64,000 nucleotides of DNA from the NCBI GenBank assembly GCA_965205505.1, contig CBDBHB010000009.1, forward strand, positions 2,848,001 to 2,912,000, read 5' to 3'. The notes beneath the pieces are model-generated. The model was not told where the DNA came from, made no database searches, and worked only from the letters and a program-made list of their open reading frames with translations. Within the stretch, counting starts at the first letter, position 1. Each line of letters begins with the position of its first letter. Position numbers and translations under genes: made by a program. Positions 8,782-35,914 of the stretch are shown here, in pieces. This DNA comes from Acidobacteriota bacterium (GTDB lineage: Bacteria > Acidobacteriota > UBA890 > WLXD01).

Positions 8782-9322
8782 GTAACAGATGATCGTTGCA
8801 TATCGCAGATGGGATTTGCGGGTGAGATCAAGGCGCGGCGAGGATGTCGATGCTAGCAGGCCGTGATGGAAGTGTGGTGGGTCTGGCAAGTGGGACTCAC
8901 GGGCTAGGGCAAGGATCGACGACGAGGCGATGCTGGAGCCATCGTCGAGGAGAGAGACGCCGCCATCGCCCGTGACTCCCACTTGCCCTACGGGTTACGC
9001 CGCCAAGGGCGCGTCTCCGGCGTTGCCGCTCCTAGACGATGCGCACGGGCATCGCCGGCGACGCGGCGCCTTGGATCTGCGCCCTTGGCGGCGTAACCAG
9101 ACCCATCACACTTCCATCACGACCTGCTGGGGCATCGTCGACGAGGCGCAACGCCGATATCGCCCGCAACTGCCCATCTGTCCGCAGGATGGCGGCGAAA
9201 TCGGCCCGTCTGCGGCGTTGCTCCTCCTCCAAGATGGGCAAACATCGTCTCCTCGTCGCGCCTGGCATCCGGACCCATTTCGCCACCACGATACGCAACG
9301 ATCATCTGTTACAGGCCACTAG
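8782..9322. mobile_element. Nested MITE-like elements (outer 8782-9322, inner 8853-9130)
   Basis: outer IR 8782-8805/9289-9312 (23/24 match); inner IR 8853-8886/9097-9130 (31/34); inner hairpin arms 8885-8904/8968-8987 and 8993-9012/9079-9098. Confidence 0.8.
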
Positions 9323-27054: not shown

Positions 27055-27339
27055 ATGAGCATGGTTCAACGCGTTCGCCTGAGAATTCGAGGGCGGGTAC
27101 AGGGAGTGTATTACCGCGCCCACGCGCGTACCGCAGCGACACGACTCGCTTTGCGAGGGTGGGTGCGCAACTGCGACAACGGGGCCGTGGAAGCTGTGGT
27201 GGAGGGACCACCCGCAACAGTGGAGGACTTCATCGCGTGGTGCCATCAAGGCTCGCCGACCGCACGGGTAGATCGGCTCGAAGTGAGCGACGAGCCTGAC
27301 GAGGCTGCGCTGGCGAGCAGTTTTGACGTCGTATTCTAG
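27055..27339 (+). CDS. acyP: Acylphosphatase
   Basis: GRVQGVYYR, GWVRN..NG.VE. Confidence 0.93.
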   Translation: MSMVQRVRLRIRGRVQGVYYRAHARTAATRLALRGWVRNCDNGAVEAVVEGPPATVEDFIAWCHQGSPTARVDRLEVSDEPDEAALASSFDVVF

Positions 27340-27441
27340 ATGAGAAGGCCAACCTCCTTGGGCTTCGAGCCCGTTGCGTTTGCTTAAACGTTTGCAGAGC
27401 CGTCAGGCTACTGCGTCAGGAGGTTGGCCTTCTCATCTCAT
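27340..27441. mobile_element. Miniature non-autonomous derivative of the IS1111-group element
   Basis: near-identical to 34670-34767; IR atgagaaggccaacctcct/aggaggttggccttctcat; CTAG on both sides (27336-27339, 27442-27445). Confidence 0.85.
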
Positions 27442-27477
27442 CTAGGTCTTGGACGAGGAAAAGGCGGGGGCGGGCGG

Positions 27478-32038: not shown

Positions 32039-33127
32039 ATGAGGAATGCAAGCGAGGTACGTTCCTACTTCCTGGGCAACTGGCGAGAGGTCGTCCCCGA
32101 AATTCTGGTAACCGGCGTGCGCGTCGGGACCGCGCCCGACGACCAAAGCATGATCGAGGTGGAGCTTCTCGGTCAGGCCGGTGCGATCCGCAGACTTCTG
32201 TACCTCCCGCTGGCCTCGGGCGAGCCTCGTCAGCTGCGCGGATTGTTGCCCCGACTGCGTCGAATCGCCGCCAAGCCGGGCACCGGGGCCGGGCTCATCG
32301 TGCCGCATATGGGGGCGGCCGGCGCGCGTCTGTGTCGAGAAGCGGGCATCGGGTATCTCGATTGCTCCGGTAACGCGTATTTGCGGTTCAACAACGTCTT
32401 CGTACAGATCATTGGCAACCGGAATCGCTTCACGCAGCGTAAGCAGATCCGCACGTTGTTTCACGACAAGGCCACGATCCCGCTCCGCATCATGATGCAG
32501 CGGCCGGGTGATTGGCTCACCACACGCGAGATTGCTGAACATGGTGATCTGAGCCTCGGCTGGGTTTCGCAGATCCTCCAGCAGATGGCCGCGGATGGCT
32601 ACATCGAGCGCCAGCGTGGTGGCGGCTCGAGGCTAGTACGGCCGCAGCGGTTGCTGACCGACTGGCTCGCCGAGTACGCCTTCGAGACGAACGAGGTGTT
32701 TCCCTACCAGTTGCGTGACAAGGATCCCGAGGCTGCGCTGCACCGTCTCCGGACGGTAGACGCAGACCTGTCGGATCGCTACGCCCTGACGCTCGAGTCG
32801 GCCGTACATGCCCTGCAGTTGAAGCCACACCAGCGGCGACTGCCCTTCGAACTACACGTGTACGTTCCCGATCTCAACGAAGACCTGGAGAAGACGCTGG
32901 ACTCCTGGCGTCGGGTGCTGGGTCTTCGCCCGGCCGGTCATGGTGCCAACTGTTTTCTCGTAAAGCCGGCGTATCGGCATGCCGTGTTCTTCGACACACA
33001 GGCAAGCCAGGGTCTGCGGACCGTCTCGGATCTTCAGCTATACCTCGACCTGTATCATTCGCCAGGAGAGGGTCGCGTGCACGCCGATAACTCGGTGGCG
33101 TCGCGACTGCCCTTCGAGGTGGGCTGA
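32039..33127 (+). CDS. AbiEi-like (type IV toxin-antitoxin antitoxin) wHTH protein
   Basis: GIGYLDCSGN, HTH TREIAE..LSLGWVS, LLTDW, YALT, VSDLQLYLDL...GRV..A. Confidence 0.72.
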   Translation: MRNASEVRSYFLGNWREVVPEILVTGVRVGTAPDDQSMIEVELLGQAGAIRRLLYLPLASGEPRQLRGLLPRLRRIAAKPGTGAGLIVPHMGAAGARLCREAGIGYLDCSGNAYLRFNNVFVQIIGNRNRFTQRKQIRTLFHDKATIPLRIMMQRPGDWLTTREIAEHGDLSLGWVSQILQQMAADGYIERQRGGGSRLVRPQRLLTDWLAEYAFETNEVFPYQLRDKDPEAALHRLRTVDADLSDRYALTLESAVHALQLKPHQRRLPFELHVYVPDLNEDLEKTLDSWRRVLGLRPAGHGANCFLVKPAYRHAVFFDTQASQGLRTVSDLQLYLDLYHSPGEGRVHADNSVASRLPFEVG

Positions 33128-33159
33128 GGCCTTTCTGGTGTCACGAACGGCACCTTGAC

Positions 33160-33362
33160 CACGACCTGCTGGGGCATCGTCGACGAGGCGCAACGCCGAT
33201 ATCGCCCGCAACTGCCCGTCTGTCCGCAGGATGGCGGCGAAATCGGCCCGTCTGCGGCGTTGCTCCTCCTCTAAGATGGGCAAACATCGTCTCGTCGTCG
33301 CGCCTGGCATCCGGACCCATTTCGCCACCACGATATGCAACGATCATCTGTTACAGGCCACT
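33160..33362. repeat. 203-bp near-identical copy of 9118-9320 (right half of nested MITE)
   Basis: direct repeat from cacgacctgctggggcatc to ctgttacaggccact with a few substitutions. Confidence 0.92.
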
Positions 33363-33412
33363 TCTATGAGAAGGCGTAGTTCGGTCAAGGGCAATGTGGT
33401 GCCCAGCGAAGA

Positions 33413-33575
33413 ATCGATCTGCACGCCATGCTCCTATTCGCACTCTGGTGGACGAGGATTCAGGTCGTCCGGTGCATTCTGGGGTCCGTCCCGATTCGAG
33501 GCGCTGCAATCTAGCTGCCGAGCTCGAAGCTCGTAGTGACCTTCGCAGTCGCCCGGACCGGGCGGTCAGATCGAT
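33413..33575 (-). ncRNA. Predicted bridge/seek RNA of the IS1111 element
   Basis: 9-bp closing stem ATCGATCTG/CAGATCGAT; internal loop with AGGUCACUA and GCAGCUAG matching the target; AUAGGAG resembling the element end ATAGAAG. Confidence 0.72.
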
Positions 33576-33622
33576 AACCGTTGGGTCGCGTCGCCCTACC
33601 GACCTCCTGGTTGCGGGTTAGT

Positions 33623-34668
33623 TCATGCTGCTGAAACCTCTACAGGTGCGCGCAACGGTTCGTACTCGTCTCCACTCAGCCACAGTCGGTGCAGCACAAC
33701 GGCGAGCTTACGGGCGACAGCAACTGCTGCCTTTTTGTTGCCATGAGGACCACCGCGTCCGGCCAGCTTGAGCCCCCAGCGTCTGAGCTCAGTATCGGGC
33801 CCGAAGGGGCCCAGGATGTAATGCGCCGAGCCCACCAACAGGCGTCGGAGCATTTTGTCGCCCGCCTTGGTTATTCGTAGCGCAGGGTCCTTGTCCCCCG
33901 ACTGCCGTTTCTTCGGTCTCAGTCCCAGGTACGGGCCCACGGCTCTGGAGGTATTGAACCGCTCCGGCTCCTCGAGCGTCAGCACATACGCCAGTGCGGT
34001 CAGAGCTCCGACCCCGGCCACTTGCTGGAGCTGCTGTGTCTCCGGGTATCGCCCCTGGCACAGCTGCACGATCTGACGCTCGTATTGCTGGATGTTGCCC
34101 GTCAGCATGGCGATCGTTTCAAGCACCGGCTCGAGCGCTCCCTTGAGCCGCTCCGGTATGTGCTCTGGCGCGGTGCGCGCGAACGCCGGCGTCGAGCACC
34201 TGGGAATACGACAACCGGCCGACTTGACCGCACCACGCACATGGCTCACCAACTGCGTGGGCTCTTTACCAGAGCATCTCGGCTCCGAATCACGGCTAGA
34301 TCCGCTCGCGCTTGTCTGCCTCGATGCTGCACCGTCTTAAGCAGCTTTGGGTCCATTCTGCCCACTCGTGCCAGGTGCTCGGCATCCAACCGGTCGGTCT
34401 TGTCGTGCTCGCCATAGATCAGCTTCAGCCGCCTCGGGTTAGCCACCAGCACCTCATGACCCAGTTGCTTCAACTGCTCACTCATCCACGGCGAGTGCGT
34501 TCCAACCTCCAGCACTACTCGAGCGGGCTCCTCGCACCCGAACCGCCTCGCCAGCCCCTCCGGGCTCGTCCTCACCCGCCCTTCCTCCATCACCCTGCCC
34601 TTACTGTCGAGCACGCACATACGGCTGTACCGGTCGCTTACGTCCAGTCCAATCGTTACACTCCTCAT
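33623..34668 (-). pseudogene. IS110 DEDD/Tnp recombinase with one frameshift near 34260
   Basis: IGLDVS, LEVG, KTDRLDA in 34246-34668; GVGALTA, YLGL.P..RQSG, AVARKLA in 33623-34252. Confidence 0.9.
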
Positions 34669-34761
34669 CGGCCAACCTCCTTGGGCTTCGAGCCCGTTAC
34701 GTTTGAAGAAACGTTTGCAGAGCCGTCAGGCTACTGCGTTCAGGAGGTTGGCCTTCTCATC

Positions 34762-35914
34762 TCATCTAGAAGGCGTCCCCAGCGCTGATCCCATGCTCCC
34801 CATTCGTGTGCCGAACAACGAGGGGCTGAAATGCGGTGTGGGGCCTGCATACCATGTCGGCGATTGGCTCAGCATCCCTTCGAACATCTTCGCCCAGTGG
34901 TCGGCGACGCCGAAAGCCATCGCGTACGGAAGGTAGCGCTCGAAGGCGGTCTCGGAAATGCTGAGGGCCTTGAAGCGGTTGGCCTCGGTACGGCCGAGGA
35001 ATTCCTCGAAGCCCTTCAGTGCAACGAAGGTCTCACGCCCCTTCACGGTTCGGGCCGGCATGAACGGCGCGAATACGCCAATGGCCAGCGCCACAAACGG
35101 GGCGGCGAAGGCCATCGCCGGCTTCTGCAGGGAGACGGCGAGCAGGATCATCGGCAACAGCGACACAACCGCTATGGCAATCCAGGTCGTGCGTGCGCGA
35201 TCAGGTCGCGAACGAAACAGACCACGCTTGGTCATGCTCCCGTAAAGCTCGTTCTTGATGCCGCTAATGCGGGTGTAGAAAGGCCCTCGAGCACCGACTT
35301 CTCGTAGGAACGTAGCGCCTCGTCGGGCAGCTTCAACCGCTGGAAGGTGGTCTTCGTGGTATCGCCGAGGTCCATGGCGGTTGGCGGAGGCCTTCAGGAA
35401 GGCTGATCTGCGCCGTTGCCGACAGAATCGGCACCGTCCAACCCATGCCGGTCACATTCCAATAGAGCTGGTCGTGTGACTCGAAGCCCTCTTCCGTGTC
35501 CGGAAATCGCAGCGCCCGACCAACGCGGTAGCGCAGGACGACGGTTCGAGACGCGTTGTTGGCGTCTGGAACCCAAACTTTGAAGCGAAAGTCGTCGCCC
35601 TCGACGCCGGCCTCGTGGCGTAGGGCGGCCCCGGTCGCCGCGGTGACCGACACAGGCTCCAAGCGGAGCCCGTAGTCAAGTCCCCACGGGGTCTCGTACT
35701 TGATCGGAATGTCTCGATAAATACCGTTGAACGAACCCTCGAAATGAAACGTGAGGCGCTCGGTGACATCGATCTCGCCGCTCTCCAGCACGCGGATGTC
35801 GGCTTCGAAAGACTCGACCCAGTATTGTCGCCCCTGAGCCTCCACGGCGCCCGGTGCGATGTACGAGACAAGCACCATGAGGACTACCGCTGAGGCCGCG
35901 CTCCGCCTACTCAT
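34762..35914 (-). pseudogene. DUF2207 membrane protein, internally deleted, frameshifted and 3'-truncated by the IS
   Basis: FNGIYRDIP, LYWNVTG..W, FERYLPYAMAFGV..W in different frames; lies after lemA; Gly-rich C-terminus missing. Confidence 0.82.

Follow-up and report, generated by a model that had tools for sequence, protein, structure and literature searches.

An IS1111-group element at the tip of a MITE

The DNA analysed here, referred to as the window, is a 64,000-nucleotide (nt) stretch from an Acidobacteriota bacterium (assembly GCA_965205505.1, contig CBDBHB010000009.1, positions 2,848,001 to 2,912,000). On its minus strand lies a 1.4-kb insertion sequence (IS) with a frameshifted transposase gene and a 263-nt 3′ non-coding region, inserted at the end of a MITE (a transposable element of the miniature inverted-repeat kind). 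Comparison with its copies and relatives makes it very likely that this is an IS1111-group element that would be guided to MITE tips by a bridge RNA (seekRNA) derived from the 3′ non-coding region. The element consists of the following parts.

33361..34767, minus strand: IS including its two core copies of 2 nt each (AG in transposase orientation, CT on the opposite strand), delimited by 27 full copies, unoccupied sites and an empty site in the same-genus genome G004
33363..34765, minus strand: IS body, with the core copies at 34767-34766 and 33362-33361
34246..34668, minus strand: N-terminal part of the transposase, DEDD/RuvC-like, ended by a frameshift (PF01548, DEDD_Tnp_IS110, E=1.3e-15)
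33623..34252, minus strand: C-terminal part of the transposase with GLRPKKRQSG, an instance of the motif GL-P----SG (PF02371, E=3.3e-17)
34750..34765, minus strand: left end, with extension ATGAG (34765-34761) followed by the subterminal inverted repeat ATGAGAAGGCC (34760-34750), a repeat kept in relatives with a located left end
33363..33376, minus strand: right end, with subterminal inverted repeat (C)GCCTTCTCAT followed by extension AGA

The frameshift is a 1-nt deletion at 34259/34260, judged against intact paralogues and against contigs of four out of four public sequencing runs. An intact paralogue (P0001) has 348 aa and scores 205.5 bits, against a cut-off of 140, with the NCBIfam model NF033542, 'IS110 family RNA-guided transposase'. 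The intact transposase distantly matches the solved recombinases of ISCro4 and IS621. The best plasmid-borne relatives reach no more than 36% identity and carry only the annotation 'IS110 family transposase'.

Several features place the element in the IS110 family: the domains PF01548 and PF02371, sequence-specific insertion, and a 2-nt core at both junctions without a longer target duplication. The IS1111 group is distinguished by a longer non-coding region 3′ of the gene, a transposase of 330–350 aa and the motif GL-P----S(t)G (PMC11187229); its subterminal inverted repeats range from 7 to 17 bp (PMC11208160). In the window element, the non-coding sequence is about 260 nt long downstream of the gene and about 100 nt long upstream, the intact 348-aa transposase has the GL-P----SG motif, and 11-bp subterminal inverted repeats (ATGAGAAGGCC / GGCCTTCTCAT) are accompanied by the short extensions ATGAG and AGA. 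Together with the NF033542 score above cut-off, these features bear out the assignment to IS1111-group recombinases made in a first-pass annotation of the window.

The repeats of the window copy match at 10/11 positions because of a C at 33376 where most copies have G. The C is present in nearly all contig depth covering this position (4 runs). The same change (CTACGCC vs CTAGGCC) is found in three copies altogether, namely the window copy, C9:817508 and C8:237496, all of which match at 10/11 for this reason. Six other copies end in CTCTTAGAAG rather than CTCATAGAAG.

The full copies share a target word

How uniform are the insertion sites? The window genome (5.98 Mb, 9 contigs) contains 28 near-full copies of the IS, 98.7–100% identical, plus fragments, and the 348-aa transposase gene is intact in 10 of them. 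Flanks were analysed for 27 full copies; the 28th runs past a contig end. At the window insertion, the two flanks are as follows.

33355..33362, plus strand: target half-site AGGCCA-CT, the MITE inverted-repeat tip plus the core, kept in 26–27 of 27 copies
34766..34769, plus strand: target half-site CT-AG, the core plus the remainder of the CTAG flank of the MITE, kept in 25–27 of 27 copies

On the transposase strand, the target of the full copies is CT-AG-TGGCCT, with TGACCT in one copy; read on the plus strand, the 3′-side half-site is AGGCCA in 26 copies and AGGTCA in one. CTAG is retained in 25–27 of the 27 copies, and AGTGGCCT follows the IS 3′ end in 26–27. Upstream of CTAG, 26 different 5′ flank strings are found in the 27 copies. 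The junctions are unambiguous except for the 2-nt AG (CT on the other strand), as in CT-AG/ATGAG...CATAGA/AG-TGGCCT.

The same word also exists without the element. Genome-wide, CTAGTGGCCT occurs 109 times without an IS, compared with about 13 occurrences expected from base composition. In the same-genus genome G004, the orthologous site is IS-free and AGGCCACTAG is contiguous; a wider reading is ...CAGGCCACTAGAAGGCG..., and its window equivalent is AGGCCACT[IS]CTAGAAGGCG. Because of the 109 unoccupied words and the contiguous empty site, the conserved flanking words belong to the target and not to the element, and insertion duplicates the 2-nt core, as in the IS110 family. The first-pass annotation had located the flanks AGGCCACT (33355-33362, plus strand) and CTAG (34766-34769), had deduced the target AGGYCA-CT-AG and had called for a comparison of flanks among other copies. 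Both flanks are present, the other copies share the target word instead of having unrelated flanks, and the deduced target is matched exactly by the 27 insertions (26 with AGGCCA and one with AGGTCA) and by the G004 empty site.

At least eight insertions are at CTAGTGGCCT words without MITE sequence beyond them, so the 10-bp word suffices as a target. The alternative word CTAGTGACCT, to which the predicted guide described below is perfectly complementary, occurs only four times, and two of these sites are occupied. CTAG itself is scarce in the genome (5,853 occurrences vs about 19,700 expected), and transposon flanks may therefore account for much of it.

Flanks are shared within two pairs of copies. 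Copies C6:423088 (plus strand) and C6:512424 (minus strand) have the same 50-nt 5′ flank and differing 3′ flanks, while C6:11743 and C6:189955 have a 3′ flank in common. This fits the pattern expected from inversion or rearrangement via recombination between copies. In addition, a mini-element of about 105 bp with CTAG on both sides is present on the minus strand at window positions 27337-27446, its single occurrence in the genome by BLAST. It consists of the first ~97 nt of the IS (95% identical) running directly into the inverted subterminal repeat GGCCTTCTCAT, and forms a near-perfect hairpin with neither a gene nor a guide RNA.

The target word lies at the junction of MITE and flank

The 24-nt inverted repeat of the MITE, TGGCCTGTAACAGATGATCGTTGC, has 143 ends in the genome when up to four substitutions are allowed. 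CTAG precedes 106 of these ends and the IS 3′ end precedes 13. Facing ends define 38 paired elements, all at most 614 bp long and most commonly 270 bp. CTAG is found on both sides in 18 of the 38 pairs; the IS is at one end in 11 and at both ends in none. Thus the family has the features of MITEs: small size, terminal inverted repeats, a flanking direct repeat and many copies. The MITE hit by the window IS is the following.

33158..33362, plus strand: left-truncated, one-ended MITE copy of about 205 bp

Its unoccupied twin is located at window positions 9118-9322. The first-pass annotation had recognised the flank as a MITE terminus with an identical, uninterrupted end, ctgttacAGGCCACTAG, at 9313-9322; this end is confirmed, and the 143 inverted-repeat ends, 106 of them adjoined by CTAG and 13 by the IS, agree with the identification. 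In the window genome, the 10-bp word mostly marks the place where a CTAG flank meets the MITE inverted repeat, and the IS therefore accumulates at MITE tips. Its orientation there is constant, the RNA-encoding end always adjoining the MITE. At the orthologous place in genome G001, CTAG is present and the MITE end is absent, which fits the view that CTAG is the MITE's own target or duplication.

We also considered whether other repeats abutting CTAGTGGCCT, ending in ...GATCAGGAGCA and ...CACCACGGCCTG, might be further IS1111-type elements. This was rejected, as they are other CTAG-flanked MITE-like families. At least two further MITE-like families end at CTAG (e.g. C8:68284 and C6:327261): one ends in ...CGTACTTATGATCAGGAGCA followed by CTAG (63 exact ends) and another in ...CACCACGGCCTG followed by CTAG (many ends).

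A predicted bridge RNA with a two-strand target loop

The 3′ non-coding region is predicted to encode a structured RNA, whose parts are listed below.

33413..33575, minus strand: predicted bridge/seekRNA of about 163 nt, which folds and has a consensus structure in 22 relatives with compensatory changes
33499..33554, minus strand: target-loop arm with closing helix GGGCG.ACUGC (33554-33545) / GCAG CGCCU (33507-33499); 9 pairs, 6 of them changed on both sides, 98% of cells paired
33519..33533, minus strand: target-loop inner hairpin CGAGCU-UCG-AGCUCG, three of four base pairs with compensatory changes across relatives
33534..33542, minus strand: putative left target guide, the 5′ loop strand AGGUCA-CU-A, complementary, allowing for one G:U wobble, to (T)AG-TGGCCT of the transposase strand
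33511..33514, minus strand: putative right target guide, the 3′ loop strand CU-AG, of the same sense as the 5′ flank CT-AG

The outer stem of 9 bp is formed by AUCGAUCUG (33575-33567) and CAGAUCGAU (33421-33413); by visual inspection, it is kept in the related loci G011, L067 and L069 with quite different sequences. Within it lies the loop motif CUGCGA-[AGGUCACUA]-CGAGCUUCGAGCUCG-[GCAGCUAGA]-UUGCAG, in which AGGUCACU occupies 33542-33535 and CUAG occupies 33514-33511. The stem, the internal loop and the inner hairpin appear in both the minimum-energy and the centroid predicted structures. Hence the 9-bp stem and two-strand loop described in the first-pass annotation are where they had been placed, and so are the two proposed matches, one loop strand to the flank with a single wobble mismatch and CUAG to the CTAG of the other flank.

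Both loop strands are identical in 28/28 copies. In the resulting arrangement, AGGUCA-CU and CU-AG would pair with opposite strands of the target CT-AG-TGGCCT and overlap at the core; one copy has AG-TGACCT as its flank, of which AGGUCA-CU is a perfect complement. For seekRNAs of the IS1111 type, the segment matching the top strand is reported to lie 5′ of the one matching the bottom strand, with overlap between them in the target (PMC11187229), and in IS621 the 5′ loop strand has 8–9 nt and the 3′ strand 4–7 nt, with the core in both (PMC11208160). The predicted loop of the window element fits both the strand order of IS1111 seekRNAs and the strand lengths and core overlap of IS621.

Guides covary with flanks among relatives

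We next asked whether the loop strands follow the flanks in homologous elements, a test that had been set beforehand. Close relatives of the IS were not found in four same-genus genomes, and only one was found among 26 genomes of the order (G011). A scan of genome contigs yielded one locus with 43% identity. Across the phylum, where 401 genomes were searched, relatives (47–58% identity) with the same architecture were found in 20 genomes, including the window genome and G011.

The nearest relative is the single copy in G011, from the same order, with 63–68% protein and 69% DNA identity. Its ends are the same as those of the window IS, while its flanks differ (...GAGT-AG/ and /AG-AGTCCG). Its loop strands, CGGACUCUA and GAGUAG, match its own flanks at 9/9 and 6/6 positions, and its inner hairpin shows two double compensatory changes relative to the window IS. 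The transposase gene of this relative (L037 / L033, G011:C1:3908607-3911306) is split by an insertion of about 2.7 kb.

The same holds more widely: relatives have internal ends in common and differ in flanking words. For the left target guide, the longest exact run against the core plus 10 nt of the 3′ flank averaged 7.25 nt for own flanks and 3.24 nt for those of others across 16 distinct guides. For the right target guide, measured as nucleotides matched beyond the core in the 5′ flank, the means over 17 distinct guides were 3.76 and 0.32 nt. None of 20,000 permutations reached the observed value in either case. These figures come from relatives with 47–68% protein identity; one locus from an unpublished genome was excluded.

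The consensus structure points in the same direction. Among 22 aligned RNAs, it comprises 17 pairs (94.4% of cells paired), of which 10 show compensatory changes. No measure was reached by any of 500 shuffles, and slid controls gave 26–49% pairing. Loop strands vary freely while the surrounding helices are kept through compensatory changes. That the target-loop reading goes beyond chance is evident from comparison across copies and relatives, not from the single fold. The covariation of loop and target in G011 and among the 16–17 distinct guides, unmatched in 20,000 permutations, together with the conserved target word, supports at the level of sequence comparison the central idea of the first-pass annotation, RNA-guided targeting to the ends of another mobile repeat.

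Donor strands

A bridge RNA would also be expected to read the ends of its own element, and two candidate strands are located around the second arm.

33431..33437, minus strand: putative right donor guide AUAGGAG, of the same sense as the IS 3′ end ATAGA plus core AG, one position of which would need a G:T wobble
33480..33484, minus strand: candidate left donor guide CCCCA, directly before the conserved helix GCAC (33475-33472) / GUGC (33443-33440)

In 17 of 19 elements, the right donor strand is identical (7/7) to the final 5 nt of the element followed by the core, which upholds the earlier observation that AUAGGAG (33437-33431) resembles the element's own end. It follows a conserved GUGCG and occurs as three variants, ATAGAAG, ATGGAAG and ATAGAAA, the last with the core changed from AG to AA. 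The first-pass annotation had left the partner strand unnamed. The candidate left donor strand tracks the 5′ terminal extension in four relatives (ATAAGG/CCUUA, ATGGT/ACCA, ATGGA/UCCA and ATGAG/CUCA), and this partially supports CCCCA as the missing partner. Another candidate, CUCGUCC, was rejected: it makes up the 3′ side of a hairpin, GGACGA/UCGUCC, and relatives preserve this stem with sequences of their own.

A model of targeting

Taken together, these comparisons suggest a model in which a DEDD/serine recombinase would be guided by a bridge RNA whose outer stem encloses two arms. In the first arm, AGGUCA-CU would pair with AG-TGGCCT on the transposase strand and CU-AG with the opposite strand of the left half-site, the 2-nt core being common to both pairings. 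The strands around the second arm would be AUAGGAG, representing the IS 3′ end plus core, and CCCCA, probably representing the 5′ terminal extension. Most likely, an excised circle would join ...CATAGA-AG-ATGAG..., followed by recombination at the core into CT-AG-TGGCCT. The anatomy, the target consensus, the empty sites and the covariation are observed; that the RNA is made, is bound by the protein and steers recombination, and that circles form, is what we infer. The window copy could be mobilized by the 10 intact copies, because its ends and guide are intact despite the broken transposase.

A promoter scan found no sigma-70-like promoter in the linear IS copy. The following candidate would be completed only in the excised circle.

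33383..33388, minus strand: TTGACC, candidate -35 box, kept near the right end in most aligned relatives

In the joined circle, TTGACC would stand 18 nt before GAAGAT, a hexamer (GA-AG-AT) that comes into being only where the two ends are joined. Junction promoters of IS110-family elements can take their -35 box from the right end (PMC12288879); by analogy, we infer that TTGACC and GAAGAT may constitute the junction promoter of the circle.

Alternative explanations

Could the transposase alone read the 10-bp word, with the likeness between non-coding region and flanks being incidental or serving another role? The CTAG part of the target is a palindrome and could as such be read by a protein dimer, and recognition of the ends by the protein is suggested by the long subterminal repeats (PMC11187229). 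Besides, the expression of the RNA and its binding by the protein are predictions, and the RNA data covered consist of contigs. On the other hand, both loop strands in G011 have changed along with the flanks, 16–17 distinct guides follow their own flanks to a degree not reached in any of 20,000 permutations, and compensatory changes maintain the helices next to the loop, whose strands vary freely. RNA guidance has, moreover, been demonstrated in the same family (PMC11187229, PMC11208160). We therefore regard recognition by protein alone as improbable. Copies might instead have spread with the MITE, or through duplication of MITE-plus-IS blocks, and not by independent targeted insertion. Such a history would account for the 13 of 27 full copies that adjoin a canonical MITE end, for several 3′ flanks that are identical over 50 nt and for the two pairs of copies with one flank in common. 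It is hard to reconcile with 26 distinct 5′ flank strings among 27 copies, with at least eight copies at CTAGTGGCCT words without MITE sequence beyond, and with the one copy at TGACCT, the perfect complement of the guide. Also, the IS is outside the MITE inverted repeat, between the repeat and the CTAG flank, so that transposition of the MITE would leave the IS behind. We consider this explanation slightly less probable still. Finally, BLAST matches of a 1415-nt query reach its very ends in nearly all copies, as would be expected if AGGCCACT and CTAG were the IS's own termini, drawn too narrowly, and there were no target specificity. This is already refuted by the 109 IS-free CTAGTGGCCT words, the contiguous AGGCCACTAG at the orthologous G004 site, and relatives that have the same internal ends next to different flanking words; its probability is next to nil.

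Guidance of the IS by a bridge RNA remains by far the best-supported explanation, and several observations weigh against it. The guide is imperfect with respect to its abundant target, as one G:U wobble is needed, and left-guide core positions are mismatched in several relatives. Outside the core, the right target guide has no more than 2 nt: CUAG, a palindrome of 4 nt, means little by itself, and just the 2 nt that are not core are target-specific. A longer right guide, GCAG-CUAG, gave mixed signs when occupied and unoccupied sites were compared (A at -2 enriched, p=0.002; G at -4 depleted, p=0.018), so this comparison provides no support for an extension beyond CU in the window element. The candidate left donor strand has one mismatch in both the window element and G011 (ATGAG vs CCCCA). 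Some of the relatives are kin sharing targets, and the independence assumed in the permutations is overstated for that reason. Folding energies are weak relative to shuffles (z -2.1 and -1.6) and were left out of the evidence. A scan of 33000-35100 against Rfam 15, with E up to 10, returned two chance-level matches only and no bridge-RNA family. Contigs of two metatranscriptome runs cover the IS; contigs as such cannot reveal transcription, strand or ends. One contig, from one run, skips from 33362 to 34670 with 21 nt on the short side, too weak a signal to interpret.

The 5′ leader and the neighbouring gene

Two further observations concern the left side of the element. The 5′ leader holds two stretches that are inverted complements of each other, GGCCAACCTCC and GGAGGTTGGCC (window 34740-34753 and 34673-34686, minus strand), and GGAGGTTGGCC contains the ribosome-binding site AAGGAGG immediately before the start codon. 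A hairpin between the two could block translation of read-through transcripts, and a similar GGCC...CTCC arrangement is found in many relatives. The neighbouring open reading frame (157 aa, window 34762-35235, minus strand) spans CTAG and stops at a TGA within the first 5 nt of the IS. A glycine-rich, repeat-coding stretch close to its 3′ end is about 100 nt shorter than in same-genus orthologues.

Relation to known systems

RNA-guided targeting by IS110 and IS1111 elements was established in 2024 (PMC11208160, PMC11187229). Homing of IS110-family elements to repeats has been known for long, the examples named in reference titles of PMC11208160 and PMC12288879 being REP (repetitive extragenic palindromic) sequences, integron attC sites and, for IS4321/IS5075, the terminal repeats of the Tn21 family. 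IS4321 and IS5075 resemble the window IS in being IS1111-type, in having subterminal inverted repeats, and in occupying a fixed position and orientation within the terminal repeat of another element. Their target is a 38-bp transposon repeat, whereas that of the window IS is a MITE tip plus its CTAG flank, in an environmental host lineage. The conceptual step from them to the window IS is small.

For ISEc11, ISKpn4, ISPa11 and ISPst6, seekRNAs have been shown by experiment (PMC11187229), whereas the window RNA is only predicted. These elements share with the window IS a guide from the downstream non-coding region, the strand order, the overlap in the target, the transposase length and the GL-P----S(t)G motif (PMC11187229). 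They differ in guide sequences and target; the donor-side strands are assigned here. IS621 (PMC11208160; 8WT6 and other structures) likewise has target and donor loops, a long 5′ strand (8–9 nt) and a short 3′ strand, a CT core and a repeat target (REP). However, its RNA is encoded upstream and its gene runs in the same direction as the CT-core strand, while in the window IS the RNA is downstream and the gene is opposite to the CT-core strand. Sequence similarity between IS621 and the window transposase is confined to the C-terminal domain (E=5.9e-8). The donor strands of IS621 are in a second internal loop, in contrast to the predicted three-way junction of the window IS.

ISPpu9 and ISPpu10 of Pseudomonas putida also have a genome-wide repeat (REP) as target, with an invariant AG at both junctions in transposase orientation, and circular intermediates are part of this system (PMC12288879). 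ISPpu9 belongs to the IS110 group, has no subterminal repeats and targets REP, whereas the window IS targets a MITE terminus. In excerpts of the literature on IS110 elements and miniature inverted repeats, we found no IS110-family homing to MITE termini; published prediction tables may include relatives from this clade. The window IS is thus a well-documented new example of an already known mechanism, and knowledge of the mechanism itself is unchanged.

Its value is that of a natural data set for targeting by IS1111-type bridge RNAs, which are under development as programmable recombinases: one guide with 27 independent insertions, 109 unused sites, an orthologous empty site and 16–17 naturally reprogrammed guides. 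The data suggest that a G:U wobble in the left guide is tolerated, that 2 nt in addition to the core can be sufficient for a right guide, and that core pairing differs among relatives.

A more far-reaching proposal, which we put forward only tentatively, is that the guide reads a word existing only at MITE insertions and that donor strands in a three-way junction represent an undescribed bridge-RNA layout. If so, the left donor guide would have only 4–5 nt, and the long subterminal repeats would take over most of donor recognition. The spread of the IS would be tied to that of another, unrelated transposon in the past. MITE tips would be renewable safe landing sites, each insertion parting a MITE end from its flank. 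More generally, the window IS is a further example of homing by one mobile element to another's end, in this instance that of a MITE, which keeps a 28-copy IS out of genes.

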